Assembly: GCA_040880425.1 (NCBI GenBank)
Contig: JBBDIL010000003.1
Span: forward strand, 9,225 to 73,224
From: Burkholderiales bacterium
GTDB lineage: Bacteria; Pseudomonadota; Gammaproteobacteria; Burkholderiales; Eutrophovitaceae
Length of the DNA: 64,000 nt
Reading direction: 5' to 3'
A program made the translations under genes and the position numbers. Below, one piece after another: positions 19,781 through 37,567 of this stretch. The notes below the pieces were generated by a model, which saw nothing but the letters and a program-made list of their open reading frames with translations, ran no database searches and was not told the origin of the DNA. Position 1 is the first letter of the stretch. Each line of letters opens with the position of its first letter.

Positions 19781-19794
19781 TTGATGCGAATCAA
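19781..19794. promoter_or_regulatory. FNR/Dnr-type box TTGATGCGAATCAA in the divergent ctaA / oxidase intergenic region
   Basis: Perfect TTGAT-N4-ATCAA palindrome; about 89 bp from the ctaA start and about 100 bp from the 61-aa ORF start. Confidence 0.65.
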
Positions 19795-20673: not shown

Positions 20674-22386
20674 ATGAACAACGCTGCAAGTTACCGCATC
20701 TGTCCGGATACCGGATTGCAGTTTCACAAGTCCGCGGAACTGCTGATGAAGGCGAACGCCGTCGCAGGGGTGCTTGCGCTGCTTGTCGGTGGCATTCTTG
20801 CGCTGCTGGTAACGCTGACGCGCTGGCCCGCGGTGCGGCTGCTGCCCGCAGACCAGTTCTACCTGGTTCTGACTGCGCACGGCATCGACATGCTGATCTT
20901 CTGGATCATCTTCTTCGAGATGGCGGTCCTGTACTTCTGCTCGTCGACCCTGCTGCGCAGCCGGCTTGCCACCCCGCGCATCGCCTGGGCGGGATTCTCG
21001 CTGATGGTGATCGGCGCGATCGTCACCAACGTCGCGATCTTCCAGGGGGGATCGAGCGTGATGATGACCTCGTATGTACCGATGCCGGCAGCGCCGCATT
21101 TCTATCTCGGGCTGATCCTGTTTGCGGTCGGTGCGCTGATTGGATGCTTCGTGTTCCTCGGCACGCTGGTGGTCGCCCGCGCGGAACGCACGTACGAGGG
21201 CTCGGTACCGCTGGTGACCTTTGGCGCGCTCACCGCCGCGATCATCGCGATATTCACGATTGCGTCCGGCGCGATCATTTTGATCCCGACTTTTCTGTGG
21301 TCGGTTGGTTACATCAACCAGATTGATCCCCTGATGTACAAGACCGTGTGGTGGGCGTTCGGCCACTCTTCGCAGCAGATCAACGTTTCTGCGCACGTGG
21401 CGGTGTGGTACGCGATCGCGGCGATCGTATTCGGCGCCAAGCCCATGTCCGAGAAGGTGAGCCGCGGGGCGTTCCTGCTGTACATCCTTTTCCTGCAGCT
21501 GGCGAGCGCGCACCATCTGCTGGCCGATCCGGGCATCAGTTCCGAATGGAAGATATTCAATACCAGCTACGCCATGTATCTCGCGGTATTGGCGAGCATG
21601 GTGCACGGGCTGACCGTGCCGGGATCGATCGAAGTCGCCCAGCGGGAGAAAGGCCTGAACCGCGGTCTGTTCGAGTGGATCCGTAAAGCACCATGGGGAA
21701 ATCCGGTGTTCTCGGGGATGTTCATTTCACTCATCGGTTTCGGTTTTCTCGGCGGCATCTCCGGCGTGATGATGGGCACAGAGCAGCTCAACATCATCAT
21801 CCACAACACCATCTACGTGCCGGGGCATTTCCACGCGACCGTGGTGGTGGGCACCACGCTCGCCTTCATGGCGTTGACCTACTTTCTTATTCCGACGCTG
21901 TTCCGGCGGGAGATGATCATGCCCGGGCTGGCGAAGTGGCAGCCCTACCTGTTCGGAATCGGGATGTCGCTGTTCTCGCTGTTCATGATGGGCGCGGGCA
22001 CGCTCGGCGTCTCGCGCCGGCACTGGGACATGGCGTTCAGCGGCGCGCAAATGCCGTACGAGTATCCCGGCACCGCCTACCTGATGATGGGGTTGATGGC
22101 GCTGGCGGGTATCGCCGCCACCGTCGGTGGCGTGATCTACCTGCTGGTGACTGTCGGCTCGCTGCTCTGGGGCCGGAGGCTGGACGCGAAGGACACCTAT
22201 ACCGCGAAACTCGTGCCGCATCGACTGCCGCCGGTCGCAGCCGCGATCGAGGGCCATGGCGGCCTCGGCATCAAGGGGTTCGCCGCACCGGGTACGTTCG
22301 TATTCGCGATGGTGTTCCTTGCGGCGTTCGTCCTGTACTACTTCGTGAACTGGAAGTACCTGTCGGAAATCTGGTACATCGGGTGA
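20674..22386 (+). CDS. haem-copper oxidase subunit I, B-family-like but lacking the HPxVY cross-link tyrosine (possible NO reductase of the B-derived NOR clades)
   Basis: Collinear with ba3 subunit I as recalled (DPLMYKTVWWAFGH..., LASAHHLLADPGISSEWK, LFEWIRKAPWGNP, HNTIYVPGHFHATV); the ba3 'GHPIVY' position reads 'GHSSQQ'. Confidence 0.8.
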   Translation: MNNAASYRICPDTGLQFHKSAELLMKANAVAGVLALLVGGILALLVTLTRWPAVRLLPADQFYLVLTAHGIDMLIFWIIFFEMAVLYFCSSTLLRSRLATPRIAWAGFSLMVIGAIVTNVAIFQGGSSVMMTSYVPMPAAPHFYLGLILFAVGALIGCFVFLGTLVVARAERTYEGSVPLVTFGALTAAIIAIFTIASGAIILIPTFLWSVGYINQIDPLMYKTVWWAFGHSSQQINVSAHVAVWYAIAAIVFGAKPMSEKVSRGAFLLYILFLQLASAHHLLADPGISSEWKIFNTSYAMYLAVLASMVHGLTVPGSIEVAQREKGLNRGLFEWIRKAPWGNPVFSGMFISLIGFGFLGGISGVMMGTEQLNIIIHNTIYVPGHFHATVVVGTTLAFMALTYFLIPTLFRREMIMPGLAKWQPYLFGIGMSLFSLFMMGAGTLGVSRRHWDMAFSGAQMPYEYPGTAYLMMGLMALAGIAATVGGVIYLLVTVGSLLWGRRLDAKDTYTAKLVPHRLPPVAAAIEGHGGLGIKGFAAPGTFVFAMVFLAAFVLYYFVNWKYLSEIWYIG

Positions 22387-22390
22387 ACAC

Positions 22391-23320
22391 ATGCGCAGCC
22401 CAAACTGCGTGACTGAGATGCAGCGCCAGGAGGTGCGCGGCCCGCGGACAAAGCTCGCCGAGGATGTGCGCGCCGTCACGGGTCTGTTCAAGATGCGCAT
22501 CGGCGTCGTCATCACCTGGACTGCGCTGGCCGCGGCCGCGACGACGCCGGGACAAGGACTCCCGGCATGGAAGTTCGCCGTACTCGCGTTCTCGGTGTTC
22601 ATCGCCTCGGCTGCCGCGGGCGCACTCAACCAGTATCTCGAGCGCGACATAGACGCGCGGATGTCACGCACCCGCAACCGTCCGTTCGTCACCGGCGCCG
22701 CGGCCCACGACGGGCGCTGGGTCTGGCTGATCATGGCGCTGACGGCCGGCGCGGTGCTGGCGGCCGCGTACTCCATCAACATGCTGACTGCGCTGTACGT
22801 GTTTCTGGGAGCGTTCTTCTACGCCGTGGTGTACACGGCGTGGCTGAAACGGCGCACCTGGATGAACATCGTGATCGGCGGACTGGCCGGCAGCTTCGCC
22901 GTGCTCGCCGGCGCAGCTGCAGTAGCGCCAGGGCTGCCGATGCAGGCGCTGATCCTGGCGATCGTGCTGTTCCTGTGGACGCCGTCGCACTTCTGGAGTC
23001 TGGCAATCGCCTACCGGGAAGATTATCTGGCGGCAAAGGTGCCGATGCTGCCGGTGGTGATCGGCAACGCCCGCACCGCGCGCGTCATCCTCGCGAACAC
23101 GGTGGTCCTTGTGGCGGTGTCCCTGCTGCCGGTGTTCTACGGCAGTGGCTGGATCTACCTTGCCGGCGCCGCGGCCGGCGGCGCCTGGTTCATCCTGCGC
23201 AATATCGACCTGGTACGCCGGCCGGACGACAGGCGCACGGCAATGAGAAGTTTCTTCGCGTCGCTGGTGCAGCTCTCGCTGCTGCTCGCCGCGGCGATGA
23301 TCGACGCGGCCCTGCTTTGA
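22391..23320 (+). CDS. ctaB: protohaem IX farnesyltransferase (haem O synthase)
   Basis: UbiA-family; 'NQYLERDIDARMSRTRNRP' motif, about 8-9 TM; start may be the internal Met at 22418. Confidence 0.85.
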   Translation: MRSPNCVTEMQRQEVRGPRTKLAEDVRAVTGLFKMRIGVVITWTALAAAATTPGQGLPAWKFAVLAFSVFIASAAAGALNQYLERDIDARMSRTRNRPFVTGAAAHDGRWVWLIMALTAGAVLAAAYSINMLTALYVFLGAFFYAVVYTAWLKRRTWMNIVIGGLAGSFAVLAGAAAVAPGLPMQALILAIVLFLWTPSHFWSLAIAYREDYLAAKVPMLPVVIGNARTARVILANTVVLVAVSLLPVFYGSGWIYLAGAAAGGAWFILRNIDLVRRPDDRRTAMRSFFASLVQLSLLLAAAMIDAALL

Positions 23321-23403
23321 AGGTGCACGTTTCGGCCGCGGAAAATGCAGATTGAGGCGGGAGCAGGGTTTTCCCGCTCTCTGCGGTGCGAGTGTGGAAC
23401 GAA

Positions 23404-24219
23404 ATGACTCGAATACGTTTCCGGTGCCTGCGATGGTTCGCTGCGACCGTGGCAGCCGTCTCGTCGCTCGGCCTCATGGCAGCGACCAGCGTGCAGCCGG
23501 ATGAAACGGCCGCGCTCGAGTTCAGCCAGGGCGTCCTCGGCAAGAGGGTGCCCGACTACGCGTTTGCGACGCATGCCGGAGAATCGCGTCGTCTGCGCGA
23601 CTACCGCGGCAAACCGCTGCTGGTGACATTCGTCTATACAGCGTGTTTCCAGGCCTGCCCGGTCGGAGTGAAATTCCTCGACCAGGCCGTGGCCCAGGCG
23701 CACAAGGTGATCGGCGCAGACCGGTTTTCCGTCGCGGTCATCGGCTTCAATCAGCCTTTCGATACGCCTGAGGCAATGCGCGCGTTCGCCGTGCGTCACG
23801 GCCTGGTTGATTCCGGGTGGGATTTCGTGAGCCCCGATGCCGGATCGGTGCAGGCGTTGACGGATGATTTCGGTTTCAGCTGGTACGCGACGCCGAAAGG
23901 GTTCGATCACATCGCGCAGGTTACGCTGCTCGATGCAGAAGGGCGCGTGTATCGGCAGATCTACGGCGAGACCTTCGAGGCGCGTGAGCTGATCGAACCC
24001 ATGAGGCAGCTCATCGCCGGGACGCCCGCCCCTGCGGGAGACTGGCGTGCATTCGTCGACAAGGTGCGCCTGTTGTGCACCGTGTACGATCGCTCCAGCG
24101 GTCGCTACCGGCTCGATTATTCTCTGTTCCTGGGTATCGCGATCGGCCTGGGCATTCTCGGTGCCGTGGTCGCCAGCCTGGTGCACGAGTGGCGGCGCAA
24201 CCGGCGTCCGGCGGTCTGA
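23404..24219 (+). CDS. SCO/SenC-family copper chaperone with C-terminal TM extension
   Basis: Thioredoxin fold with 'YTACFQACP' CxxxC and downstream His (FDHIAQV); extra C-terminal TM (LFLGIAIGLGILGAVVASLV); track ORF starts at GTG 23386. Confidence 0.75.
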   Translation: MTRIRFRCLRWFAATVAAVSSLGLMAATSVQPDETAALEFSQGVLGKRVPDYAFATHAGESRRLRDYRGKPLLVTFVYTACFQACPVGVKFLDQAVAQAHKVIGADRFSVAVIGFNQPFDTPEAMRAFAVRHGLVDSGWDFVSPDAGSVQALTDDFGFSWYATPKGFDHIAQVTLLDAEGRVYRQIYGETFEARELIEPMRQLIAGTPAPAGDWRAFVDKVRLLCTVYDRSSGRYRLDYSLFLGIAIGLGILGAVVASLVHEWRRNRRPAV

Positions 24220-24309: not shown

Positions 24310-24323
24310 TTGATGCGCATCAA
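24310..24323. promoter_or_regulatory. FNR/Dnr-type box TTGATGCGCATCAA upstream of the cytochrome b fusion / HCO-like module
   Basis: Perfect palindrome; about 134 bp upstream of the proposed GTG 24451. Confidence 0.6.
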
Positions 24324-24450
24324 TGCACCTCCCGCGCCCCATGGAGGAGCATGCTTGGGTGAGCGTGCCGGTTTTCCCCGGTGCGCAGGACATCGGGGCG
24401 AGGATGACGGCGGCAACCATCGGGACCTGGCTTATCGTGCGGAGCGCGCG

Positions 24451-26325
24451 GTGATCGCGCCTCTGCAGCGCGGCGGGCAATGGCTGTTCATGCGCGTCGA
24501 GGGCGGATTCAATCTGTTCTTCGGGCAGGCGCTCAACCCGCTCTACCACCTGGGCGCAATCACCTTCCTGCTTTTCTGGATTGCGCTTGCGAGCGGTATC
24601 TATCTATACGTGTTCTTCGACACCAGCGTAACGGGGGCGTATGACTCGGTGGCGCGCCTGACGCACGGTCAGTGGTATCTGGGCGGCGTCATGCGCAGCC
24701 TGCATCGCTATGCATCCGACGGCATGGTCATCACCATGCTGTTGCACATGGTGCGGTATTTCGTTTTCGATCGTTACCGGAACTTCCGCTGGTTCTCCTG
24801 GGTGACCGGGGTGATTCTGCTTTGGCTGGTATACGCTTCCGGCATCAACGGCTACATGCTGCCGTGGGACCGTCTCGCCCAGTTCGTGGCGACCGCAACT
24901 GCGGAGTGGATCGACTGGTTCCCCATGTTCGCGGGCGCGCTTGCTCGCAACTTCAGCTTCGAGGGATCGGTGAACGACCGGCTCTTCTCTCTGCTGGCAT
25001 TCCTGCACATCGGTATCCCGCTCGGCCTGTTGATCGCAATGTGGGTGCACACCCAGCGCGTGCCCGGCGCCAGGAGCAGTCCGCCGCCGGCGATCGCGGC
25101 GATGACCGGCGTCGCGCTGCTGGTGCTCGCGGCGGTGAAGCCGGCGGTCAGCCAGGGGCGCGCGGATCTCTCCACCGCAGTCGCGGCGGTCGGGCTCGAC
25201 TGGTTCTACCTCCCACTCTATCCGTTGATCTACGCATGGTCGCCGCGCGATGTCTGGGCGCTGGCGCTGGGCGCAACCTTGCTGCTGTTCGCGATCCCCT
25301 GGCTTGGACGCCGGCGGCGCGAGCGGCTGGCGGAGTTCAAGGCGACTTTCCGTCCGGGCAATCTTTCTGCCCCGGTGCGTGCCGGAGAGACGCTGCTGGA
25401 AGCCGGACTGCGCCAGGGCATACCGCTGCCTTACGACTGCCGCAACGGCGGCTGCGGCGTGTGCAAGGCGGATCTGCTGCAGGGCGCCGTGGACTACGGC
25501 GTGTACCAGAAGACGGCGCTATCCGACGAGGAGAAGGAAGATGGCAGTCTGCTGCTGTGTTGCGCTACCCCGCTATCGGATGTGGACATCGAACTGGAGA
25601 CATCGCGCGAGCACACCGCCACGGTGGTGGACATGCAGCAGCTTGCGCCGGATGTCATGCTGCTCAGGCTAAGGCCCAACAGGCCGGTTTCGTACGTGGC
25701 AGGTCAGTACATCAACATCGTGCTGGAGAACGGCGATACCCGCAGCTTTTCCTTTGCGACCGCGCCTGGCGCGGGTGAACTGATCGAACTGCATGTGCGC
25801 CTGATTCCGGGCGGCAGGTTTACCACGCATGTCTTCACGCGCATGTGCGAAGGCGACCGGCTGCGTTTCCGCGGGCCGTTTGGCGCTTTCACGTTGCAGG
25901 AGGACAGTCCGAGACCGATTATCTTTGTGGCGGGCGCTACCGGATTTGCGCCGGTGAAGAGCATGCTCGAGTACGCGTTCGAGCATGGCATCCGCCGCCC
26001 CATGGTGCTGTACTGGGGTGTGCGCTCGCGTAAAGACCTGTACATGGCGGAAATGCCGGAGTGCTGGGCGCGCGAGCACCAGAATTTCAGCTTTGTGCCG
26101 GTGCTGTCCGAACCGCAGCCGGAAGATGAGTGGACCGGAAGGACCGGCATGGTGCACGAAGCAATACTCGAGGACTTCCCTACGTTGCAGGGCTACGAGC
26201 TGTACGCCTGCGGGTCGATGCAGATGGTGGAGTCCGCGCATCCGGAGTTCATCGCGCAGGGGCTGTCCGAGGATGCCTGTTTCTCCGATGCCTTCACCCA
26301 CGCAGCGCAGGGATCACCGGCATGA
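24451..26325 (+). CDS. fusion protein: di-haem cytochrome b (bc1/b6 N-terminal type) + plant-type [2Fe-2S] ferredoxin + FNR-like FAD/NAD(P)H reductase
   Basis: His pairs 14 residues apart in two helices (SLHRYASDGMVITMLLH; FLHIGIPLGLLIAMWVH), 'NGYMLPWD'; 'CRNGGCGVCK...LLCC'; 'RSFSFA', 'GPFG', 'GATGFAPVKSM'. Start moved to GTG 24451 (GGAG upstream; N-terminus aligns with the paralog; an FNR box sits at the track start 24310). Confidence 0.8.
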   Translation: MIAPLQRGGQWLFMRVEGGFNLFFGQALNPLYHLGAITFLLFWIALASGIYLYVFFDTSVTGAYDSVARLTHGQWYLGGVMRSLHRYASDGMVITMLLHMVRYFVFDRYRNFRWFSWVTGVILLWLVYASGINGYMLPWDRLAQFVATATAEWIDWFPMFAGALARNFSFEGSVNDRLFSLLAFLHIGIPLGLLIAMWVHTQRVPGARSSPPPAIAAMTGVALLVLAAVKPAVSQGRADLSTAVAAVGLDWFYLPLYPLIYAWSPRDVWALALGATLLLFAIPWLGRRRRERLAEFKATFRPGNLSAPVRAGETLLEAGLRQGIPLPYDCRNGGCGVCKADLLQGAVDYGVYQKTALSDEEKEDGSLLLCCATPLSDVDIELETSREHTATVVDMQQLAPDVMLLRLRPNRPVSYVAGQYINIVLENGDTRSFSFATAPGAGELIELHVRLIPGGRFTTHVFTRMCEGDRLRFRGPFGAFTLQEDSPRPIIFVAGATGFAPVKSMLEYAFEHGIRRPMVLYWGVRSRKDLYMAEMPECWAREHQNFSFVPVLSEPQPEDEWTGRTGMVHEAILEDFPTLQGYELYACGSMQMVESAHPEFIAQGLSEDACFSDAFTHAAQGSPA

Positions 26326-26873
26326 ACACGCGAGCCGCATCCAGCGTGACCGTGCGCTACATTGGCCAGGCGCTGCTGTATGGACTGTTTGTCACGGCCA
26401 TCGGCTATTTTTCGACTTCGCCGGAGTACACGCATCTTCGGCCGCGAGAGGCGCTGATGAAGGTCTCCTTCACGCATGCCGCACAGCGGGTCGGAGATTG
26501 CCGCATGCGCACCGATGAGGAACTCGCTCGCATGCCGCCGAACATGCGCATCCGTGAAGACTGCCCGCGCGAGCGCGCGCCGGTGACGATCGAGGTCGCT
26601 CTGGACGGACAGATGCACTTCCGCGAAGTGCTTAACCCGACCGGTTTGGCGCGCGACGGCGCGGCCTCCATGTACCGTCGCATCGTCGTCCCTGCCGGCG
26701 AGCACCATGTTGCGGCACGCCTGTCCGACCGGCGCGATGGCGCGTTCAATCATGCGAAAGAGCAGACCATTCTGCTTGCTCCGGCCGATATCCTGGTGAT
26801 TGAGTTCCATGCAACCGCCGGCGGTTTCGATTTCCTTTATCCGCTCAGGGAGGCGCAGCTTGATCGAGATTAA
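26322..26873 (+). CDS. hypothetical membrane-anchored protein (one N-terminal TM plus about 140-aa soluble domain)
   Basis: ATG 26322 overlaps the upstream stop (ATGA); TM 'IGQALLYGLFVTAIGYF'; no recognisable cofactor motif. Confidence 0.55.
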   Translation: MNTRAASSVTVRYIGQALLYGLFVTAIGYFSTSPEYTHLRPREALMKVSFTHAAQRVGDCRMRTDEELARMPPNMRIREDCPRERAPVTIEVALDGQMHFREVLNPTGLARDGAASMYRRIVVPAGEHHVAARLSDRRDGAFNHAKEQTILLAPADILVIEFHATAGGFDFLYPLREAQLDRD

Positions 26874-26930
26874 GTTTCCAGCTGTGTACCCCCTGTAGGA
26901 TGGTTTCAATGTCGGGTGGTGAACTCAATC

Positions 26931-28451
26931 ATGCTCTCGGGCATCCGGGTCTCTTTGCTGCACGGCTGGCGCGCGCTCGAGACGACGTTCGATCGAGCGT
27001 TTGGCGCACGCGACAATCCGCTGCGCCACCTGGGCGCTCTGGGTTTCTACTTCTTCTGGGTAGCGGCGGCGAGCGGGATCTACCTGTATGTGTTTTTCGA
27101 TACCAGCGTCGCCGGTGCGTACCGCAGTGTGGAGGCGCTGAGGCACCAGCCGTGGCTGATCGGCAGCGTCGCGCGCAGCCTGCATCGCTATGCTTCCGAC
27201 GGCTTCGTGGCGGTGATGTTTCTCCATCTCGTGAAGGAAACGCTGGCCGCCCACTACCGCGGATTCCGTCTGTTCTCGTGGCTTACCGGTGTGCCGCTGA
27301 TCTGGCTGGTATACGTGTCCGGAATCGGTGGCTACTGGCTGGTATGGGACCGCGTTGCGCAGTTTTCCGCTGCCGCGACGATGGAATGGCTCGACTGGCT
27401 GCCGCTTTTCGGCGAACCGCTTGCGAGAAATTTTCTGCATGCCGGCAGCGTGAGCGACCGCTTTTTCTCGTTGCTTGTGTTCGTGCACATTGGCGTGCCG
27501 CTGCTGCTGCTGCTCGGCATGTGGGTGCATATCCAGCGCGTGAGCCTGGCCGACACCGCGCCGCCGCGCCGGTTGGGCTGGGGCGTGGCTGTCGCGCTGC
27601 TCGCGCTTTCACTGCTGAAACCGGCGCTCAGCGCGCCGCCCGCCCATCTCGATACCGAACCGGCGCGCGTCGCGCTCGACTGGTTCTATCTGTTCGTGCA
27701 TCCGCTGGCCTACCGGACATCCGCCGGGTTCGCCTGGGCGCTGGTGTTCGGTGCGACCCTGTTGCTCGCCGCCGCGCCGTTGTTGTCACGCGCGCGGCCC
27801 GAACCAGTGGCGAAAGTCGATCCGGAAAACTGCAACGGCTGCGGCCGCTGCGTGGCCGATTGTCCGTACGCCGCGGTACAGCTGGTGCCGCATTCGTTGA
27901 AAGGGAAGTACCGTATGCAGGCGCAGGTCGACCCGGACCTGTGCGCAGCCTGCGGCATCTGCGCCGGCGCCTGTCCGTCCTCGACACCGTTTCGCCGGAT
28001 GGAGACGCTGGTGAGCGGTATCGACATGCCTTTGCTGCCGATCGGCGTGTTACGGGGACGGCTCGATTCTGCGCTTTCCCGGCTCGTCAGCAGACCGCGC
28101 GTGGTGATTTTCGGCTGCGAATGCGCGGCGGACGTAAACACGCTTGCGGCGCCGGGCGTTGCAAGTTTCAGCCTGCCGTGTATCGGCAACCTGCCGCCTT
28201 CGTTTGTCGAGTACGCGCTGCGCAACGGCGCGGACCGCGTGCTGGTGACTGGCTGCCGCGAGGGCGACTGCGCGTACCGGTTCGGCAATCGGTGGATCGA
28301 GCAGCGATTCTCAGGGGAGCGCGAACCTCATTTGCGCCGGCATGTGGCGCGCGAGCGCGTGCGCATCGCCTGGGCGAACGCCGGCGACGAGGAACGGCTG
28401 CGTGCTCAACTGACGGAATTCTGCGAGCCCCGGGCGCGGCGTTTGTCGTGA
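26931..28451 (+). CDS. fusion protein: di-haem cytochrome b + 2x[4Fe-4S] ferredoxin + MvhD/FlpD-like domain
   Basis: Paralogous cyt b domain (SLHRYASDGFVAVMFLH; FVHIGVPLLLLLGMWVH; GGYWLVWD); 'CNGCGRCVADCP' and 'CAACGICAGACP'; 'VVIFGCECAAD...LPCIGNLPPSFVEYALRNGADRVLVTGCREGDCAYRFGNRW' FlpD/MvhD pattern; alternative GTG start 26916. Confidence 0.8.
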   Translation: MLSGIRVSLLHGWRALETTFDRAFGARDNPLRHLGALGFYFFWVAAASGIYLYVFFDTSVAGAYRSVEALRHQPWLIGSVARSLHRYASDGFVAVMFLHLVKETLAAHYRGFRLFSWLTGVPLIWLVYVSGIGGYWLVWDRVAQFSAAATMEWLDWLPLFGEPLARNFLHAGSVSDRFFSLLVFVHIGVPLLLLLGMWVHIQRVSLADTAPPRRLGWGVAVALLALSLLKPALSAPPAHLDTEPARVALDWFYLFVHPLAYRTSAGFAWALVFGATLLLAAAPLLSRARPEPVAKVDPENCNGCGRCVADCPYAAVQLVPHSLKGKYRMQAQVDPDLCAACGICAGACPSSTPFRRMETLVSGIDMPLLPIGVLRGRLDSALSRLVSRPRVVIFGCECAADVNTLAAPGVASFSLPCIGNLPPSFVEYALRNGADRVLVTGCREGDCAYRFGNRWIEQRFSGEREPHLRRHVARERVRIAWANAGDEERLRAQLTEFCEPRARRLS

Positions 28452-28467
28452 GAGGGGGAGTCAATCC

Positions 28468-29904
28468 ATGAGATCAGGCGGTCAGGTTAACGGCACCGCA
28501 GGAACTTTCGGCCACCGTCTCGTGCTGCCGGCCCTGCCGCAGGTGCTCTATACGCTTGATGTGCCGCGGGATGCGCGCGCACGGCTGGCGCTGAACTGGA
28601 TCGTTCTCGGTCTGGTAGCGTTGATCGGAGCAGGCGTGTTTTCGGCCCTGCTGGTGGCATCGCGCACCCCCTTCGTGCAGAGCGTGTTTCCGCTGGTGGA
28701 CTTCTTCCGGGTTGCGCTGGTGGTGCATGTGGACCTTTCCGTGCTGGTCTGGTTTCTGGCGTTTGCCGGCGCGCTTTGGAGTCTGAACAGTACCCGGCGC
28801 TGGATGCCGCTGGGCTGGACTGCGCTTGCCGCCTGCGCCCTTGCCACACTGATGATGGTGATCGCACCGTTTGTCGGTCAGCCGGTGCCCATCATGAGCA
28901 ACTACATCCCGGTGCTCGACAGCCCGCTGTTTCGATGGTCACTGGTGGTGTTCGCCGCAGGGGTGGCGGCGGTTCTGCTGCGCGGCATGGGCGCGGTCCC
29001 CAAGGTGGGTGCGCAACTGGACGGAGCCGGCGTGCTGCGTTTCGGGCTGAACGCCGCGGCGATTTCAGCGGCGGTTGCGCTGGGCGCGTTCATCTGGTCC
29101 TGGCTCGCAGTGCCGCCGGCGCTCGACGGCAAGGCCTACTACGAATTGCTGTTCTGGGGCGGCGGCCACGTGCTGCAGTTCACCTGGACGCTGCTCATGT
29201 TCGCCGCATGGCTGTGGCTCGCCGGCGAAGGCGGTTGCCCGATTCCGCTCACGCCCCGCGTGACACTGCTGCTGTTCGCCATCACGCTCGCAATCGTGTT
29301 TCTGACTCCGGTGATCTATCTTGCGCACGACGTTACTTCAGTCGAGCATCACAAGCTGTTCACCTGGCAGATGCGCTTCGGCGGCGGGCTGACAATCCTG
29401 CCGATGGCGCTCGCGGTGGTGATTGCGCTGGCGCGCGCCGCGCCGGCCCGTGCCGAGGAGAAACCGCTGCGTGCGGCGCTGATCATGTCGCTCGCTCTGT
29501 TCGCCTTTGGAGGCCTGATCGGTGTGGGCATCGACGGCTCGAATGTGAAAGTCCCGGCGCATTATCACGGCAGCATCGTCGGCGTAACACTCGCGTTCAT
29601 GGGCGTGGTCTATCTCCTGCTGCCGCGCCTGGGGTTTGCGTCCCCGCCTTCGCGCGCTGCCGCACTGCAATGCTGGCTCTACGGTGCGGGGCAGATGCTG
29701 CATATCACCGGGCTGGTGTGGTCCGGCGGCTACGGCGTGCAGCGCAAGGTCGCAGGAGCGGAGCAAGGCCTGGATGCGATCGAGAAGATTGCGGGCATGG
29801 CACTGATGGGTTTCGGCGGCCTCGTCGCCGTGATCGGAGGACTGATGTTCCTGGTGATCGTGCTGCGCGTGCTGGCGCGCGGACGTACGGGTGCGCCACG
29901 GTAG
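28468..29904 (+). CDS. orphan haem-copper-oxidase subunit I-like protein (12-TM core, no cognate subunit II)
   Basis: All six canonical HCO His present: H87 (VVHVD), H234 (GGGHVLQF), H294/H295 (VEHHK), H365/H367 (VPAHYHGSIVGVTLAF, compare VPGHFHATVVVGTTLAF in the 570-aa subunit I); Phe, not Tyr, at His234+4; GGGGGAG SD. Confidence 0.7.
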   Translation: MRSGGQVNGTAGTFGHRLVLPALPQVLYTLDVPRDARARLALNWIVLGLVALIGAGVFSALLVASRTPFVQSVFPLVDFFRVALVVHVDLSVLVWFLAFAGALWSLNSTRRWMPLGWTALAACALATLMMVIAPFVGQPVPIMSNYIPVLDSPLFRWSLVVFAAGVAAVLLRGMGAVPKVGAQLDGAGVLRFGLNAAAISAAVALGAFIWSWLAVPPALDGKAYYELLFWGGGHVLQFTWTLLMFAAWLWLAGEGGCPIPLTPRVTLLLFAITLAIVFLTPVIYLAHDVTSVEHHKLFTWQMRFGGGLTILPMALAVVIALARAAPARAEEKPLRAALIMSLALFAFGGLIGVGIDGSNVKVPAHYHGSIVGVTLAFMGVVYLLLPRLGFASPPSRAAALQCWLYGAGQMLHITGLVWSGGYGVQRKVAGAEQGLDAIEKIAGMALMGFGGLVAVIGGLMFLVIVLRVLARGRTGAPR

Positions 29905-29928
29905 CGGGCGCGGGTGCGGTGGCGTGAC

Positions 29929-30369
29929 ATGACGACGAACCCGGATCTCCCTCTGGTGTATTCCTGCTCTGGATACTCGAGCGCGGCGCAGATGGCGAAC
30001 TACCTCGCGCTCCGGCTGGATCGTATCGGTGCGGCGGAAATGTCGTGCATCGCGGGCGTGGGCGGCGCCGTGCCGCATCTGGTCCGGATCGCACGATCCG
30101 GACGACCGATCGTGGCGATCGACGGTTGCCAGCTGGTGTGCACGGCGAGCTGCCTCGGTCGGCAAGGCCTGCAGCCGGTACTGCACCGCGTCCTGTCCGA
30201 CCACGGTGTGCGCAAGCGCTATCACACCGAATTCGACGAGCGGGAAGCGCAGCGCCTGCTGTCGGAACTGCTGCCGGCGGTCGAACACGCGCGCCGCGGC
30301 GCACGGGAATTGCCGGCGCTCCCCGGCGGCGCGGGCGCAGACGGCGGCGCACCGGGCGGGCATCGGTGA
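29929..30369 (+). CDS. DGC-domain putative metal-binding protein
   Basis: 'VYSCSGYSSAAQ...', 'AIDGCQLVC' DGC motif; GTGA overlap with ubiU. Confidence 0.6.
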   Translation: MTTNPDLPLVYSCSGYSSAAQMANYLALRLDRIGAAEMSCIAGVGGAVPHLVRIARSGRPIVAIDGCQLVCTASCLGRQGLQPVLHRVLSDHGVRKRYHTEFDEREAQRLLSELLPAVEHARRGARELPALPGGAGADGGAPGGHR

Positions 30370-31379
30370 GCGGGCGCGCGCCCATCGAACTGGTCTGCCC
30401 CGCCGGCAGCCTGGCCGCGCTCAAGGCCGCGGTCGACGCCGGTGCCGACTGCGTGTATCTCGGTTTTCGCGACGACACGAACGCGCGCAACTTCAAGGGT
30501 CTGAACCTGGACGCGGCGGATCTTGCGGACGGATTGCGCTACGCGCACGCGCGCGGCCGGCGCGTGTTCGTGGCGATCAACACCTATGCGCAGGCGGGCG
30601 CCTTCGAGCGCTGGTGCCAGGCAGTCGACCGGGCGGCGCAGCTCGGTGCCGATGCGGTGATTCTGGCCGACCCTGCGCTGCTGCAGTACGCCGCTTCGGC
30701 ACAACCGGATCTGCGCCGGCACCTGTCGGTGCAGGGTTCGGCCACCACGTACGAGGCGATCAACTTCTACCGCAGACAGTTCGGCGTGTGCCGCGCTGTG
30801 CTGCCACGTGTGCTGGCGCTGCCGCAGATCGAGAAGCTGATGCAGCATGCCGAAACGGAGATCGAGGTGTTCGGCTTCGGCAGCCTGTGCGTGATGGTGG
30901 AAGGCCGCTGCGCGCTGTCGTCCTACGTCACCGGGCAGTCGCCGAATACGGCAGGCGCGTGTTCCCCGGCTGGCGCGGTACGCTGGCAGCAGACGCCGCG
31001 GGGCCTGGAATCGCGGCTCTCGGATGTGCTGATCAACTGCTATGCCGACGGCGAAAAGGCCGCGTATCCGACGCTGTGCAAGGGGCGCTATCGCGTCGAC
31101 GACGACGTCTACTACGCGATCGAGGAGCCGGCCAGCCTGAACACGCTCGCGCTGCTGCCGGAATTGCTGCGCATCGGCGTCTCGGCGATCAAGATCGAAG
31201 GCCGCCAGCGCAGCGTGGCCTATGTGGCGGAAGTCACGCGTACCTGGCGCGCGGCGATCGACGTTTGTGCCGCCGATCCCGCACGTTTCGCGCCGCGCGG
31301 CGCCTGGATGTCGCAGCTCGACCGGCTGGCCGAGGGCCAGCAGCACACGCTCGGTGCGTACCACCGGCCATGGCGGTGA
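30366..31379 (+). CDS. ubiU: U32-family protein UbiU (O2-independent ubiquinone hydroxylation)
   Basis: 'IELVCPAGSLAALKAAVDAGADCVYLGFRDDTNARNF' peptidase-U32 N-terminus, Cys cluster (CVMVEGRCALSS...C); followed by ubiV and an SCP2 gene; start set at GTG 30366. Confidence 0.75.
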   Translation: MSGRAPIELVCPAGSLAALKAAVDAGADCVYLGFRDDTNARNFKGLNLDAADLADGLRYAHARGRRVFVAINTYAQAGAFERWCQAVDRAAQLGADAVILADPALLQYAASAQPDLRRHLSVQGSATTYEAINFYRRQFGVCRAVLPRVLALPQIEKLMQHAETEIEVFGFGSLCVMVEGRCALSSYVTGQSPNTAGACSPAGAVRWQQTPRGLESRLSDVLINCYADGEKAAYPTLCKGRYRVDDDVYYAIEEPASLNTLALLPELLRIGVSAIKIEGRQRSVAYVAEVTRTWRAAIDVCAADPARFAPRGAWMSQLDRLAEGQQHTLGAYHRPWR

Positions 31380-31383
31380 CGCG

Positions 31384-32286
31384 GTGAAACTCGCGCTCGG
31401 ACCGCTGCTGTACTACTGGCCCCGCGACGCGGTGTTCGCTTTCTACGAGCGTGTCTCCCGGGCGCCGGTGGACATCGTCTATCTCGGTGAAGTCGTCTGC
31501 TCGCGTCGGCGCGAGCTGCGCATGCAGGACTTGATGGAGATTGCGGACGGACTGGCGCGTGCCGGCAAACAGGTGGTGCTTTCCACGCTGGCCCTGCCCG
31601 AGACCGACGCCGACCTGCGCCAGGTAAAGAAGGTGTGCGACAACAGCCGCCACGTGGTCGAGGCGAACGACATGGCGGCGGTCCACATGCTTTCACGCGC
31701 CGGGACCGCATTCGTCTCGGGACCGCACGTCAACGTCTACAACGGGCCCACCCTCAGGCTGCTGAGCGGACTCGGAGCCGAGCGCTGGGTCATGCCGCTG
31801 GAGCTGGCGTCGGACGCGCTCGCGGCGATCCTGCGCGACCGGCCGGAAGGCATGGAAACCGAGGTGTTCGTGCTCGGACGCATGCCGCTTGCGTTCTCGG
31901 CGCGATGCTTCACCGCACGCCATTACGATCGCGCCAAGGACGACTGCGGTTTCATGTGCCGGGATCACCCGGACGGTCTCGCTTTGCAGACACGCGAGCG
32001 TTCGCCCTTCCTCGTATTGAACGGCATCCAGACCCAGTCGTGGCGCGTGTACAACCTCGCGCGCGAACTACCGGCGCTCGCCGCAGCCGGTGTGGACGTG
32101 GTGCGCATCAGCCCGCAGTCAGTCGATACCATCGAGTTGCTGGAATGCGTGCGTGCGATGCTCGACCGGAATCCGGTGCCGGAGGGGCAGCTCGCGCATC
32201 TGGACGCATTGCTGCCGGCGGAAAGCTGTAACGGTTACTGGCACGGGCTGCCCGGCATGACGCGTGCGCCGGCAGAACCGGCATGA
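31384..32286 (+). CDS. ubiV: U32-family protein UbiV
   Basis: 'KLALGPLLYYWPRDAVFAFYERV...VDIVYLGEVVCSRRRE' YhbV-like; partner of ubiU; start set at GTG 31384. Confidence 0.75.
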   Translation: MKLALGPLLYYWPRDAVFAFYERVSRAPVDIVYLGEVVCSRRRELRMQDLMEIADGLARAGKQVVLSTLALPETDADLRQVKKVCDNSRHVVEANDMAAVHMLSRAGTAFVSGPHVNVYNGPTLRLLSGLGAERWVMPLELASDALAAILRDRPEGMETEVFVLGRMPLAFSARCFTARHYDRAKDDCGFMCRDHPDGLALQTRERSPFLVLNGIQTQSWRVYNLARELPALAAAGVDVVRISPQSVDTIELLECVRAMLDRNPVPEGQLAHLDALLPAESCNGYWHGLPGMTRAPAEPA

Positions 32287-32777
32287 GTTTCTTCCCGCTG
32301 CCGTTTCCATCGTCTCTCGTCGACGCACGGGCGATGATCTCTTCGCTTGCCGGCCTGCCGGGTTCGCTGGCGCTCGTGACTGCATTGAACGTCGCCTTCG
32401 AGAGATTTCCGGAGGGACTCGATTCTCTGGAGGGTAAGCGCGTGTGCATGCATACGACCGATCTGGGATTGCGCGCCTATCTCACACTCCGCGGCCAGGC
32501 GTTCGTGGTCTGCCACCCGGTATCGGATCCGGATGTCCTGATCCGGGCAAGTGCGGCGGACTTTTTTCGACTCGCGAGCCGAAAAGCGGACGCCGACACG
32601 CTGTTCTTCGCGCGTCGCCTGCTGATCGAAGGCGACACCGAGGCAGGACTCCTGCTGAAGAATGCGCTGGATGCGCTTGACCTGGCCCGGCTGCTGCACA
32701 ATCCGCCTGCTCTGCATCGGCTTCTGGCGGTGCTCCGCGCAAGCTTCCGCGGTCCGGCTGTCAAACCCTGGAGCTAA
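32283..32777 (+). CDS. ubiT: SCP2 domain protein UbiT (ubiquinone biosynthesis accessory factor)
   Basis: SCP2 sterol-carrier pattern ('IRASAADFFRLASRKADADTLFFARRLLIEGDTEAGLLLKNALD'); ATGA overlap with ubiV. Confidence 0.7.
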   Translation: MSFFPLPFPSSLVDARAMISSLAGLPGSLALVTALNVAFERFPEGLDSLEGKRVCMHTTDLGLRAYLTLRGQAFVVCHPVSDPDVLIRASAADFFRLASRKADADTLFFARRLLIEGDTEAGLLLKNALDALDLARLLHNPPALHRLLAVLRASFRGPAVKPWS

Positions 32778-33730: not shown

Positions 33731-34462
33731 TCATCCGAAGCCGCGTCCTTCGCCGGCCTCCTCGAAAGTCTTGCCGTCGCGGATGTGATACAGGCGCTTG
33801 AAAGTCGGGATGATCTTCTCGTCGTGGGTGACGACAATGATCGCTGTGCGATATTGGCTCGCAAGCTGATTGAGGATACGGATGACCGTTAGGGCTCGCT
33901 CGCTATCGAGCGGTGCCGTCGGCTCATCGGCGAGGATCACGGGCGGCCTGTTGGCGAGCGCGCGGGCAATGGCGACGCGCTGTTGTTCGCCGCCCGACAA
34001 CTCGACGATCCGGGCGGCAGCGCGATGCGCCACGTCGAGTGCGCCCAGTATCTCCAGCGCGCGTCGCCGCGCATCGCCGTTTGCCATCCCCGCCAGCATC
34101 GGCAGCAATGCCACGTTATCGGTCGCGTTGAGAAACGGGATCAGATAGGGGGCCTGGAAGATGAAACCGATGCGATCGCGTCTAAGCGCGCGCAGGTCGC
34201 TGATCTTCCATCCGTTGTCGTAAATGGCTTCCCCGTCGAGGATCATTCTTCCGGCGCTCGGTTCGATCACTGCACCGAGGCACTTGAGCAAGGTGGTTTT
34301 TCCGGAACCGCTCGGCCCGATCAGCCCGACGACCTCACCCGCCAGGATTTCCATGTTTACGTCGTTGAGAGCGTTCACGGCGGTATCGCCGGAACCGTAG
34401 CGCTTCGACAGGTTCTCGATGCGGATCGCGGGACGTGAAGTGGGAAACACCATGGGCCTCAA
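33731..34462 (-). CDS. ABC transporter ATP-binding protein (MacB/LolD family)
   Basis: Walker A 'GPSGSGKTT', 'LSGGEQQRVAIARAL', 'ILADEPT'. Confidence 0.85.
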   Translation of the reverse strand: MRPMVFPTSRPAIRIENLSKRYGSGDTAVNALNDVNMEILAGEVVGLIGPSGSGKTTLLKCLGAVIEPSAGRMILDGEAIYDNGWKISDLRALRRDRIGFIFQAPYLIPFLNATDNVALLPMLAGMANGDARRRALEILGALDVAHRAAARIVELSGGEQQRVAIARALANRPPVILADEPTAPLDSERALTVIRILNQLASQYRTAIIVVTHDEKIIPTFKRLYHIRDGKTFEEAGEGRGFG

Positions 34463-35652
34463 CCGCCTATTGCAGTGGCAGGGTCGACGCGCAGTGCCGC
34501 GCGGATCGCGAGCAGACTTGCTGCCGCGCAGATCACCATTACCGCTACCAGGCCGCGCACTGTGTCTTCAGGTACAAGCAGCACGTACTTCGGAAAAACA
34601 GGTGCCCATAGCGTTGCCGCGGTTTTCCCAATCATGAAGCCGAGCACCCCGAGGCCTAGTGCCTCCTGGAGAATCATCCCCGCAATGGTGCGGTTCTTCG
34701 TGCCGATCAGTTTCAGCACGGCGATCTCCTTTATCTTGTTCAGCGTCATCGTATAAATGATGAAAGACACGATCGCCGCGCTGACCACCGCGAGGATCAC
34801 CAGAAACAACCCGATCTGGCGTGCCGAAGTGGCGATCAGTTTTGCCACCAGAATCTCCTCCATCTGCACCCGTGTGTACGCCTGCAGGCGTTTCCAACGC
34901 ATGATTTCCACGCCGACTGCATCGGCTTTCCACCCCGGGGCAACGCGCACCAGCACAGCATTGACGTTGCTGCTTTTCACCTGGCTTTCCTGGATTGCTT
35001 CGAGCAGTCCCGGAACGCCGGGGCGATTGAGCTCCGGATTTGCCTCGGTACGGGCCCGCTCGTTGTGGATTGAGTCGCTGTCCTTGAGAAACTGCGCTTC
35101 CTGCGCGTCCCTGAGGGGAATAAACAGCATCGGATCGCCGGCAGAGGACACCATACGGCGTGTGAGTCCCACCACCGTGTACTCGTGGCGACGGATGCGC
35201 ACGCGCTCACCAATTCGGAAGCCGGTAGTGACGTCGGCGATCGCCTCGTAATGCGCGCGCGTAATGCGTCTGCCGGCAACGAGATAGGACGGTTCGCCGG
35301 GTCGGTCGCGCTCGAAGCCGACCACCATTGCGCGCACGTCCTCGGCGCCGCGCTGCACCTGCATGGTCAGATAGGTGACGTTGCCGGCTGCGGCGACGCC
35401 CGGCAGGCCGAGCAGGCTGCGGTACACGTCGTCGCGGATAGTGGACGGTTCGGCATATGGCCCAAGTGTCCCTTGCTGAACCACCCAGATATCTGCGCCA
35501 CTGTTGTGCAGCAGCACTTTTGCGTCGTCCACCATGCCGCGATATACGCCCGCCATGGTGAGTGTGGTACCGATCAGCAGTCCGAGTCCGATGGCCGTGA
35601 GAACGTATCTGCCCCAGGCATGAAGAATGTCCCGGCTCGCGAGGTTGATCAT
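34459..35652 (-). CDS. ABC transporter permease (FtsX/MacB type)
   Basis: TM1, large periplasmic domain, 3 C-terminal TM; ATGA-type overlaps with neighbours. Confidence 0.8.
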   Translation of the reverse strand: MINLASRDILHAWGRYVLTAIGLGLLIGTTLTMAGVYRGMVDDAKVLLHNSGADIWVVQQGTLGPYAEPSTIRDDVYRSLLGLPGVAAAGNVTYLTMQVQRGAEDVRAMVVGFERDRPGEPSYLVAGRRITRAHYEAIADVTTGFRIGERVRIRRHEYTVVGLTRRMVSSAGDPMLFIPLRDAQEAQFLKDSDSIHNERARTEANPELNRPGVPGLLEAIQESQVKSSNVNAVLVRVAPGWKADAVGVEIMRWKRLQAYTRVQMEEILVAKLIATSARQIGLFLVILAVVSAAIVSFIIYTMTLNKIKEIAVLKLIGTKNRTIAGMILQEALGLGVLGFMIGKTAATLWAPVFPKYVLLVPEDTVRGLVAVMVICAAASLLAIRAALRVDPATAIGG

Positions 35653-36851
35653 CGCGCGGCCCGCGTTCCGGGCAGGCCTGGGACTGAAAGCAGCTTGTCG
35701 ACCTTCACTTTCTGCCCCGCGGACAGTTCCAGCGGACTGTAGAGCACGACTTCATCGTTCGCTGCGAGCCCGCTTAGTACCTGGGTGCGCCCGTCCAGTG
35801 TCCGCACTCCTGTGCTAATCGGAACGAAGTGCGTCCGTCCGTCACGGATCTGCCACACGCCGTGCTGTCCGTCTGCCCGGGCGAGTGCGGCGCTCGGAAT
35901 CCAGACCGCATCCTGCACCGCCGGCAGCCGGACGGTTACTTCCGCCAGGTCGCCGAGGGGCACTCCTGCCGGTCGACCGTCGAATGCGATGTTTACCATG
36001 CGTTCTTCCGTTACCGGATCGCCCGCCTCTTCTATTCGCGCCACGTGTCCTTGCAGCGTCGCCGATGGCCGCGAACGCAATGCGATCTCTGCCGCGTGGC
36101 CGACCGCTATGCCCTCGGCACGGCCCTGATCGATGCGCGCTCGAACCCAGTAGCTTTCGGGTTGCACCATGCGCAGCACGGCCTGACCCGGCACCACGGT
36201 GCTGCCGGGTTCGACGTCGCGGGCGATAACCAGGCTATCAGCGGGACTCTTGAGCAGGAGATCGCCGCGTAGTCGAGACAACCCTTTGTGCTCAGCTGTT
36301 ACACGCGACAGATCGCGTTGCGCTGCCGCCAACTGAGCGCGTGCACTCGCGACGGCCGAAATGGCTGCGGCAGCATCGTGCTGTCTCGCATCGACCGCCT
36401 CGGCGCTTACGAAGCCGACAAGGCCGAGTTCAGCGTATCGTTTGGCGCTGGCTTCTGCCATTTGCCTGCGGCTCTGCGCCTCGTGCAGGCTGGCTGCCGC
36501 CGCGTCAACATTATGCGCGGCGCGCTGCCGCGCAAACTCCGCAGCAGCCAGACGCATGTCGAAATCTACCGCATCCATCTCGGCGACGACCTGACCGGCG
36601 CGGACCCGGTCGCCCTGGTCAACAAAGATGTGCTTTACGCGCCCGGGCTGCGTCGGGCCAACAGCGTAGGCATAGCGTGCCTCCACAACCCCGATACCGA
36701 AAATCTCGGGCTGCAAAGTCCCCTGTGCGGCACTTGCCGTCCCTACGCGCACGGTCGCCATCGGTCCCTGCGTGACAACGACCCAAAGAAAGCCTGCCAT
36801 TACCGCGGCCAGCACGCCGAACAGCGATAGTTTTTGCGCGCGGGCGTTCAT
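35649..36851 (-). CDS. efflux periplasmic adaptor (HlyD/MFP family)
   Basis: Signal anchor, coiled coil, barrel-sandwich motifs. Confidence 0.8.
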   Translation of the reverse strand: MNARAQKLSLFGVLAAVMAGFLWVVVTQGPMATVRVGTASAAQGTLQPEIFGIGVVEARYAYAVGPTQPGRVKHIFVDQGDRVRAGQVVAEMDAVDFDMRLAAAEFARQRAAHNVDAAAASLHEAQSRRQMAEASAKRYAELGLVGFVSAEAVDARQHDAAAAISAVASARAQLAAAQRDLSRVTAEHKGLSRLRGDLLLKSPADSLVIARDVEPGSTVVPGQAVLRMVQPESYWVRARIDQGRAEGIAVGHAAEIALRSRPSATLQGHVARIEEAGDPVTEERMVNIAFDGRPAGVPLGDLAEVTVRLPAVQDAVWIPSAALARADGQHGVWQIRDGRTHFVPISTGVRTLDGRTQVLSGLAANDEVVLYSPLELSAGQKVKVDKLLSVPGLPGTRAAR

Positions 36852-37495
36852 GACCGCTTCCGCTGTGAGCGGTTCCGGTGCGAAGCCTTGCGGTCCCGGA
36901 TGCCCTCGAGAAAGATCGGAAAGACGCGTCGGGCCTGCTGCACCATGTTGCCAGCGGCGTGTCCACCGCCGTAGATCGATGTCTGCATGACCAAACCCTG
37001 CACTGTCCCGATGAACAGCGTGGCTGCGTCCTGCGCGTCCACGTCGGAACGCACCAGGCCCATTCTCTTGCTGTCTTCGAATAACTCTACGAGCCGTGCG
37101 CGATAGGTGCTCATCATTTCACGTACCAGCGGTGTTAGCTTCGAGCCGCGAGCCTGCTGCAGTTGCCGAAACAGCAATCTCGGGATTGCCGGGTGCTCCG
37201 CTACGAAGCCCACGTGGGCGTAGAACATGCGCTCCAGCATCTCCAGGGGATGTGAGCCGCCGGCGGCGGCGGCGTCCGTCACGGACAGCAGTCGGCTACC
37301 CGCCCAGCTGAGTACCGCAATCCAGATCGATTCTTTGGTCGGGAAGTGTCGGAAAATCGCGCCCTGCGTGACTCCCACCGCCTGCGCCATGTCCAGCGTG
37401 GTGATGTTTTCCACATCCTGTTCGCCGACGAGGTTGACCGCCGCGCGAACGATCTGCTGCTGACGCTCATCTGCTTTGAGTCGTTCTCTGGACAC
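36848..37495 (-). CDS. TetR/AcrR family transcriptional regulator
   Basis: N-terminal HTH 'ITTLDMAQAVGVTQGAIFRHFPTKESI'; first gene of the exporter operon. Confidence 0.85.
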   Translation of the reverse strand: MSRERLKADERQQQIVRAAVNLVGEQDVENITTLDMAQAVGVTQGAIFRHFPTKESIWIAVLSWAGSRLLSVTDAAAAGGSHPLEMLERMFYAHVGFVAEHPAIPRLLFRQLQQARGSKLTPLVREMMSTYRARLVELFEDSKRMGLVRSDVDAQDAATLFIGTVQGLVMQTSIYGGGHAAGNMVQQARRVFPIFLEGIRDRKASHRNRSQRKRS

Positions 37496-37553: not shown

Positions 37554-37567
37554 TTAATCTGCATCAA
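37554..37567. promoter_or_regulatory. FNR-like box TTAATCTGCATCAA upstream of nrdD
   Basis: One mismatch to TTGAT-N4-ATCAA; about 110 bp upstream of the nrdD start. Confidence 0.45.

Follow-up and report, generated by a model that had tools for sequence, protein, structure and literature searches.

What can a protein of the haem-copper superfamily do once it has lost part of the ligand set that the superfamily shares? To our knowledge, six His residues define all characterised haem-copper enzymes. The question is raised by a gene in a 64,000-nucleotide stretch of DNA from a Burkholderiales bacterium of the family Eutrophovitaceae (NCBI GenBank assembly GCA_040880425.1, contig JBBDIL010000003.1, positions 9,225 to 73,224 of the forward strand), here called the window, within which all coordinates are given. 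An earlier note, made from the letters of the window alone, had described the gene product as a minimal subunit I-like protein of the haem-copper oxidases (HCO) with a complete His ligand set but with neither a Tyr cross-link motif nor a subunit II. The gene is arguably more unusual than that. It belongs to a large family that holds only four of the six canonical His residues, and it closes an operon that already encodes a complete NO reductase of the eNOR type. Judging from sequence and synteny, we propose tentatively, at a little short of an even chance, that the protein binds haem and either handles haem O/A or provides a scaffold on which haem-A enzymes are assembled.

28468 to 29904, plus strand: the target gene, 478 aa, ATG start, a 12-helix HCO subunit-I paralogue

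The open reading frame (ORF) has a Shine-Dalgarno sequence (GGGGGAG) upstream of its ATG, and its product is 100% identical to a protein from a Burkholderiales metagenome-assembled genome (MAG) whose PGAP name is "cbb3-type cytochrome c oxidase subunit I." Recognition by sequence is weak. The Pfam model PF00115 (COX1) matched residues 40 to 446 with 41.6 bits, above its cut-off of 34.8, while a scan of NCBIfam gave no match at an E value of ≤0.01, and a single-sequence phmmer search against PDB sequences found no HCO, just a spurious ribosomal protein. A family profile was therefore needed. It was built from an alignment of 123 family members, reaching down to about 32% identity, and when run against PDB sequences it matched solely B-family subunit I (ba3, E = 6e-20). 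An AF2 model built on 24 homologues (pLDDT 80.6, pTM 0.85) contained twelve long helices, and its best Foldseek match in the PDB was Thermus ba3 subunit I (E = 2.6e-9, TMq 0.69), followed by cbb3 CcoN, cNOR NorB, and aa3 subunit I, all four with a probability of 1.00. Thus, ba3 is the closest solved structure by structure and sequence profile alike. The description as an HCO subunit I-like protein is borne out by the COX1 match, the fold match to ba3, and the family profile; the ORF is genuine, and the assignment of the modeled fold to HCO subunit I is sound. The protein is as short as had been noted, but 478 aa is a normal length in the family, which runs from about 440 to 490 aa.

The family-profile alignment with ba3 pairs the functional positions as follows.

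H87, opposite ba3 H72: low-spin haem ligand
H234, opposite ba3 H233: CuB ligand
F238, opposite ba3 Y237: position of the cross-linked Tyr
I283/Y284, opposite ba3 H282/H283: helix-VII CuB His pair
H365/H367, opposite ba3 H384/H386: high-spin and low-spin haem ligands, respectively
R426/K427, opposite ba3 R449/R450: haem propionate anchors

The target has His at positions 16, 87, 234, 287, 294, 295, 365, 367, and 412. The earlier note had assigned H87, H234, H365, and H367, together with the pair H294/H295, to the complete six-His set. The first four align with ba3 ligands as claimed, and the helix-X motif VPAHYHGSIVGVTLAF does parallel VPGHFHATVVVGTTLAF of the neighboring 570-aa subunit I (eNOR I). 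The assignment of H294/H295 to CuB fails, because the alignment places the helix-VII pair at I283/Y284. A second, independent test gave the same answer. In a profile-profile comparison by hhalign with 57 eNOR I sequences from the same operons (probability 99.9%, E = 1e-35, 24% identity, 437 columns), eNOR I H280/H281 fell opposite target I283/Y284, and target H294/H295 fell opposite eNOR I W292/K293. The target pair lies ∼10 residues downstream of the aligned pair, in a loop (residues 291 to 305) that is the sole internal stretch of the model with pLDDT below 50.

Conservation among the 123 family members agrees with this map. The four aligned His residues are nearly or fully invariant (H87 in 122, H234 and H365 in 123 each, H367 in 121), as are the propionate anchors (R426 in 120, K427 in 121). 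Position 294 is His in 41 members, Phe in 31, and Tyr in 24, and position 295 is His in just 10, with Arg in 45. A His-His pair at 283/284 occurs in 1/123, and 29/123 have no His anywhere from 276 to 304. Even among sequences at least 59% identical to the target, position 295 varies (H/Y/S/R/I/V/M). Within the close Burkholderiales clade, no variation is seen at E293, and more than 90% of the sequences keep H294. The co-encoded eNOR I served as an internal control; in 57/57 sequences it retains the full six-His set together with the diagnostic Gln and the Arg pair. We considered E293 as a Glu ligand shared with eNOR I and rejected it; the aligned Glu is kept in just 21/57 eNOR I sequences. From the alignments, the conservation, and the eNOR I control, the apparent full ligand set is a coincidence of the target sequence: H294/H295 are a clade-specific loop feature, neither homologous to ligands nor conserved, in a family that holds four of the six canonical His and, in the target, has Ile/Tyr in place of the helix-VII pair.

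The most conserved motif of the family is FWGGGHxLQ in the distal pocket, in which W230, G233, and H234 are present in 123/123 members and Q237 in 122/123; N145, Y146, E226, T299, and M302 are also strongly conserved. Strong purifying selection acts on both haem pockets, and the non-haem metal site has been dismantled. The two observations made earlier on the surroundings of H234 both stand. The target motif is GHVLQF, with Phe at His234+4 (position 238 is Phe in 95 and Tyr in 11 of the 123 members), so that the cross-link Tyr is absent, F238 lying opposite ba3 Y237. No cNOR-type Glu cluster is found near H234: His+4 is Phe and His+8 is Leu/Gln in the family alignment, which does not fit NorB of cNOR/qNOR, where a Glu at His+4 serves as the fourth FeB ligand and further Glu residues cluster nearby. 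The search for an alternative Tyr on helix VII, which the earlier note had suggested, found none at the C-family position, six to seven residues before the pair; V277/F278 stand there.

Measured against the known enzyme classes, the target has the three haem His of an HCO (helix II and the helix-X HxH, here H87, H365, and H367) but, of the three CuB/FeB His (one from helix VI and a pair from helix VII), just H234. It lacks the cross-linked His-Tyr of O2-reducing HCO, having F238 at His+4, and no dedicated electron-entry subunit goes with it. As the earlier note had said, no CuA or cytochrome c gene adjoins it: the neighbors are a cytochrome b/[4Fe-4S]x2/FlpD gene upstream and a gene for a DGC-domain protein downstream. 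No NCBIfam NOR model matched the target, and NorB was just a lower-ranked fold match, which sets it apart from cNOR/qNOR. It is not a cbb3 CcoN either; TIGR00780 gave no match, and no ccoO or ccoP lies nearby. A Gln at the position of the cross-link Tyr is diagnostic of eNOR (PMC8756737). By the combination of that Gln with the full His set, the target is not an eNOR I, whereas its 570-aa neighbor is, in 57/57 orthologues. The target thus stands outside any characterised HCO family, and the PGAP name "cbb3-type" is generic and misleading for it and for many homologues, a systematic misannotation. Thousands of entries named "cbb3-type cytochrome c oxidase subunit I" would accordingly not be oxidases, and they inflate the counts of oxidases and NO reductases in surveys of denitrifiers and metagenomes.

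The closest relatives make the departures plain. The target is about 24 to 26% identical to the adjoining eNOR I and shares with it the superfamily and B-family-like branch, the haem ligands, the helix-X HxH, the basic pair at the propionates, a Gln at His+3, and the operon. Unlike eNOR I, it has I283/Y284 for H280/H281 and Phe for the diagnostic Gln, is ∼90 residues shorter (12 helices), and has no cupredoxin partner of its own. Compared with Thermus thermophilus ba3 subunit I (PDB 3S8F and 1XME), it has equivalents of H72, H233, H384, H386, and R449/R450 but none of H282/H283 or Y237 and no CuA subunit, and ba3 R225 is replaced by the family-conserved E226. The putative NO reductase family gNOR, with one active-site His changed to Asp (Murali et al. 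2024, PMC11214002), was reported as the first exception to the six-His set. Compared with that description, the target family likewise departs from the otherwise universal set. Unlike the target, gNOR exchanges a single His for a carboxylate capable of binding metal and keeps a cupredoxin-fold subunit II; the target exchanges two His for Ile/Tyr and has no subunit II.

The family is far larger than gNOR. We found 5,632 matches among 90% clusters and, among 1.84 billion 50% clusters, 1,449 representatives with E values of ≤1e-3 and 1,113 with E values of ≤1e-10. Members occur in at least 592 species-level genomes, and the best 80 all belong to Beta- or Gammaproteobacteria. The count of 50% clusters is far too small to include the canonical oxidases, so the family is a discrete one without them. 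These searches point to a large, discrete family not characterised before that lacks two of the six His; it comprises no fewer than 1,100 clusters at the 50% identity level and is spread over at least 590 species.

The target is the last gene of the operon in its close clade, and a pair of ctaA genes diverges from it. The genes are as follows.

17554 to 18531, minus strand: divergent CtaA-like protein, second copy (51.5 bits)
18592 to 19698, minus strand: haem A synthase (COX15/CtaA), divergent from the eNOR operon (368 bits)
19887 to 20072, plus strand: small 61-aa protein with a single transmembrane (TM) helix, opening the operon (55/86 loci)
20115 to 20660, plus strand: eNOR subunit II, CuA ligands H126, C161, C165, H169, and M172 (invariant in 56/56)
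20674 to 22386, plus strand: eNOR subunit I, 570 aa, six canonical His, Gln235 at the Tyr position (GHSSQQ) (invariant in 57/57 orthologues)
22391 to 23320, plus strand: haem O synthase (CyoE/CtaB) (TIGR01473, 264 bits)
23386 to 24219, plus strand: SCO1/SenC copper chaperone (51/55 loci)
24310 to 26325, plus strand: fusion of di-haem cytochrome b, [2Fe-2S] ferredoxin, FAD, and NAD(P)H modules (54/55 loci)
26322 to 26873, plus strand: conserved 183-aa protein of no Pfam family, TM helix and beta-sandwich (55/55 loci)
26916 to 28451, plus strand: fusion of di-haem cytochrome b (N-terminal, bc1/b6-type), two [4Fe-4S], and FlpD/MvhD-like modules (Pfam; 55/55 loci)

Linkage in the close clade was counted at 55 loci flanked by 3 kb or more on each side, taking neighbors within 10 kb. 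The beta-sandwich protein and the cytochrome b/iron-sulfur (FeS)/FlpD fusion were present in all 55, the cytochrome b-flavin fusion in 54, SCO1 in 51, eNOR I in 49, CyoE in 45, and CtaA in 35. The notion of a stand-alone minimal enzyme does not survive this context, in which a complete eNOR is encoded by the same operon. The neighboring oxidase was also considered as an sNOR (the norSY-senC-orf1 arrangement of ammonia oxidisers) and rejected; with Gln in place of the Tyr, it is an eNOR. The Rhodothermus marinus eNOR is described by Murali et al. 2024 (PMC11214002) as an experimentally verified NO reductase that uses haem As, with ctaA often carried in such operons.

The two cytochrome b fusions are paralogues, 47% identical over the membrane part and differing in their cytoplasmic modules. 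Both keep two His-x13-His pairs (haems bL and bH). Their architecture resembles TM electron conduits of the NOX or ferric-reductase type, and apart from speculation in one preprint, described below, they are uncharacterised. The start codon of the beta-sandwich protein (about 170 to 183 aa, AF2 pLDDT 92.6, N-terminal TM helix) shares an ATGA with the stop codon of the preceding gene. Every eNOR-type locus encodes the protein, and it is missing from the non-eNOR and aa3-type contexts. C60, C81 (CPRER), and PPNMR are invariant, H52 and H128 are nearly so, and these Cys/His residues could form a metal site or a disulfide. We tried it as a cryptic subunit II and rejected it, with no cupredoxin match in the PDB by Foldseek and an hhalign probability against eNOR II of 0.3%. 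The two ctaA paralogues (17554 to 19698, minus strand), one canonical and one highly divergent, stand in tandem, and the same pair recurs at locus L005.

Distant members of the family, 33 to 40% identical to the target, are found in other surroundings with the same kinds of neighbors. They lie directly beside CtaA, mostly in divergent orientation, at eight loci (L087, L096, L098, L118, L121, L149, L157, and L158), and a Rickettsiales MAG has ctaA diverging from a target homologue that is followed by glutaredoxin. CyoE adjoins distant members at L117, L118, and L158, and SCO1 does so at L122, L131, L146, L153, L160, and L171. At L118 the homologue sits inside an aa3-type cluster (cox11-cox3-surf1-ctaB, target homologue, ctaA-sco1-DsbD_2) that contains neither eNOR nor a cytochrome b fusion. 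Non-eNOR contexts with a flank of 1.5 kb or more numbered 14, and in 9 of these a ctaA or ctaB gene lies no more than 3 kb away. The linkage to ctaA, ctaB, and sco1 spans clades. Genes found close by in related loci include nirS, nosR, nnrS, and hemerythrin genes. At L152/L155 (7259 to 9365), a full-length family member comes immediately after a small TM protein and a truncated ORF resembling eNOR II (118 aa, 29% identity); nirS and ctaA lie upstream, and a Crp/Fnr regulator is encoded downstream. The arrangement resembles an eNOR operon from which eNOR I and the cytochrome b genes have been lost and in which the target homologue remains.

Gene fusions were also found. One homologue is fused to haem O synthase (P0219, a singleton), two carry an N-terminal di-haem cytochrome b (P0121 and P0393, 761 aa), and C-terminal TPR fusions recur in five separate 50% clusters. 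At L169 (2371 to 6239), a TPR-fused member stands right after ResB-CcsA, the System II apparatus of cytochrome c maturation and haem export, an unexpected link that ties a subunit-I-like protein to haem trafficking.

These results can be accommodated if the target is a degenerate paralogue of a B-family/eNOR-type subunit I that keeps both haem pockets. It would retain two haem sites, one low-spin with bis-His ligation (H87/H367) and one high-spin with H365 as its ligand, along with R426/K427 as propionate anchors. The non-haem metal site is lost, with H234 alone left of the three CuB/FeB His, and the Tyr cofactor is absent. Because metal site and Tyr cofactor are lost, canonical binuclear reduction of O2 or NO is beyond such a protein. 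It would instead be an accessory component of haem-A-type haem-copper enzymes, handling haem O/A or acting as an assembly scaffold together with CtaA, CyoE, and SCO1 during eNOR maturation. We favor a role in maturation because only the linkage to biogenesis genes survives across the eNOR, aa3, and stand-alone contexts, and the fusions to TPR repeats and to haem O synthase fit such a role. Several observations weigh against it. We found no experiment on any family member in the literature. Conservation such as that of FWGGGHxLQ, N145, Y146, E226, T299, and M302 would sooner be expected in an active site than in a passive scaffold. The close-clade gene always travels with the two cytochrome b fusions and their NAD(P)H, flavin, and FeS modules, which a chaperone would leave unexplained. 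Three of the 14 non-eNOR contexts have none of the tested biogenesis genes within 3 kb, and the fusions to haem O synthase (a singleton) and cytochrome b (two sequences) are rare.

The same conserved pocket and the same cytochrome b genes are what the chief competing explanation builds on. The target would then be active in redox catalysis with its haems alone, or would form the end of a new electron transfer chain, in which electrons pass from NAD(P)H/ferredoxin through flavin/FeS and two b haems to the low-spin haem of the target, and NO, O2, or peroxide reacts at the high-spin haem under a distal pocket of H234, Q237, E226, and Y284. In a variant, the target links eNOR and the cytochrome b modules within a supercomplex, a speculation made in the preprint discussed below. 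The presence of the cytochrome b fusions in 54 to 55 of 55 close-clade loci with both His pairs kept, the existence of cytochrome b-target fusions, the extreme conservation of the distal motif and of polar intramembrane residues, the FNR/Dnr-type boxes, and the denitrification-related genes and hemerythrins near related loci all speak for such a role. However, clades linked to aa3 genes or to ctaA alone lack the cytochrome b fusions and the denitrification genes, so the function of the family as a whole cannot depend on those fusions; catalysis with neither a second metal nor a Tyr has no precedent in the superfamily, and the fusion itself is known from just two sequences. We consider this explanation possible but rather unlikely. 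Doubtful to a similar degree, although worth stating, is the idea of a widespread HCO branch that dispensed with the non-haem metal, kept both haems, and acquired a new distal pocket (H234, Q237, Tyr284, and E226) for chemistry of its own, with Tyr284 exactly at the place of the former CuB His; such a protein might be a redox partner of haem A synthase or, in the close clade, the terminal haem module of an eNOR supercomplex. A self-sufficient minimal oxidase or NO reductase that has all six His and lacks just the Tyr cofactor and subunit II, as originally suggested, is very improbable. H294/H295 are present in the target, the E293-H294 segment is kept in the close clade, and the loop could in principle fold toward H234, the model being unreliable there (pLDDT < 50). 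Nevertheless, the canonical pair was twice aligned elsewhere, H295 varies among close relatives, most of the family has no His at 294 or 295 and 29 members have none in the whole region, and the operon already supplies a complete eNOR. A decaying, functionless duplicate of eNOR I would fit the loss of two catalytic ligands and the low identity to the adjoining eNOR I but is scarcely credible for a large old family of intact, full-length ORFs with invariant motifs, conserved synteny, and reported detection of the protein in Ferrigenium. These last two explanations are essentially excluded, and the remaining probability belongs to roles that we cannot name.

The preferred reading, in which the target assists the maturation of haem-A enzymes, has functional parallels. 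Surf1/Shy1 and CbaX are haem a insertion factors of aa3 and ba3 oxidases and are small proteins with one or two TM helices. The role proposed here, delivering or holding haem A, would be comparable, and the target is likewise encoded beside ctaA/ctaB/sco1, but it has no homology to these factors and is a full 12-helix subunit-I paralogue. Nor would it be a simple replacement for Surf1, because L118 encodes both together. Haem A synthesis needs O2. The eNOR operons, which are important for N2O production, carry the target, the two cytochrome b fusions, and the beta-sandwich protein as conserved extra genes, and these could decide eNOR maturation at low oxygen or the electron supply of the enzyme. 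The partner of haem A synthase in bacteria has long been missing, and the steady pairing of the target with this enzyme gives a clue to it that can be tested.

We found one report in which the gene is remarked upon. A 2026 preprint on Ferrigenium straubiae (bioRxiv 10.64898/2026.01.22.701106) lists an operon of eNOR II, eNOR I, haem o synthase, Sco1, a cytochrome b-FeS-FAD-NADH protein, a hypothetical protein, and an "eNOR scaffold protein," with a cytochrome b/FeS/F420-hydrogenase-delta protein also listed near the scaffold gene. The scaffold protein (IMG 2878407321, annotated "hypothetical protein," KO K02274, cytochrome c oxidase subunit I) is described there as of unknown function, common in eNOR operons, and detected in the proteome, and a quinol:NAD+ supercomplex is the subject of speculation (bioRxiv 10.64898/2026.01.22.701106). 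By gene order and annotation, it is the apparent counterpart of the target; unlike the present analysis, the preprint gives neither a ligand analysis nor a function for it. A paralogue of the target type is not mentioned in the searched passages of the main text of Murali et al. 2024 (PMC11214002), and our literature search found no described family of subunit I-like proteins beside haem A synthase. In nothing that we found were the missing pair of canonical ligands, the family size, or the link to haem A synthase described earlier.

Regulatory motifs were sought with the FNR/Dnr-type consensus TTGAT-N4-ATCAA. The window contains 9 such boxes at ≤1 mismatch against 0.89 expected, a ∼10-fold enrichment.

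19781 to 19794, no strand assigned: perfect FNR/Dnr-type box TTGATGCGAATCAA in the divergent ctaA/eNOR promoter region
24310 to 24323, no strand assigned: perfect FNR/Dnr-type box TTGATGCGCATCAA between SCO1 and the cytochrome b-flavin gene
26860 to 26873, 37554 to 37567, and five more places in the window: further FNR/Dnr-type boxes

In 22/50 related loci, the small-protein gene has a box in the 250 bp upstream of it, compared with a background of 2.3%. On this evidence, the eNOR operon of the close clade is predicted to belong to a low-oxygen/NO regulon controlled through FNR/Dnr boxes. Because the annotated TTG start of the cytochrome b-flavin gene overlaps the box at 24310, the true start of that gene is probably further downstream. 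One box lies upstream of nrdD (37672 to 39714).

Downstream of the target, the window encodes a DGC-domain protein followed by UbiU, UbiV, and UbiT of O2-independent ubiquinone biosynthesis (29914 to 32777). These were considered as operon members and rejected, being linked in just 3 to 4 of 86 loci; UbiUVT and nrdD (37672) mark the organism as a facultative anaerobe. Two long ORFs were discarded as lying in the wrong frame with no Pfam match: one of 523 aa (26900 to 28471), where the true frame (26916 to 28451) encodes the cytochrome b/FeS/FlpD fusion, and one of 452 aa (30029 to 31387), where the overlapping frame 30045 to 31379 encodes UbiU. Such ORFs are typical of DNA with 63% G+C and are easily mistaken for genes. 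Further along, on the minus strand (33731 to 37495), are an unrelated MacB-type ABC exporter (ATPase, FtsX permease, and HlyD adaptor) and a TetR regulator.

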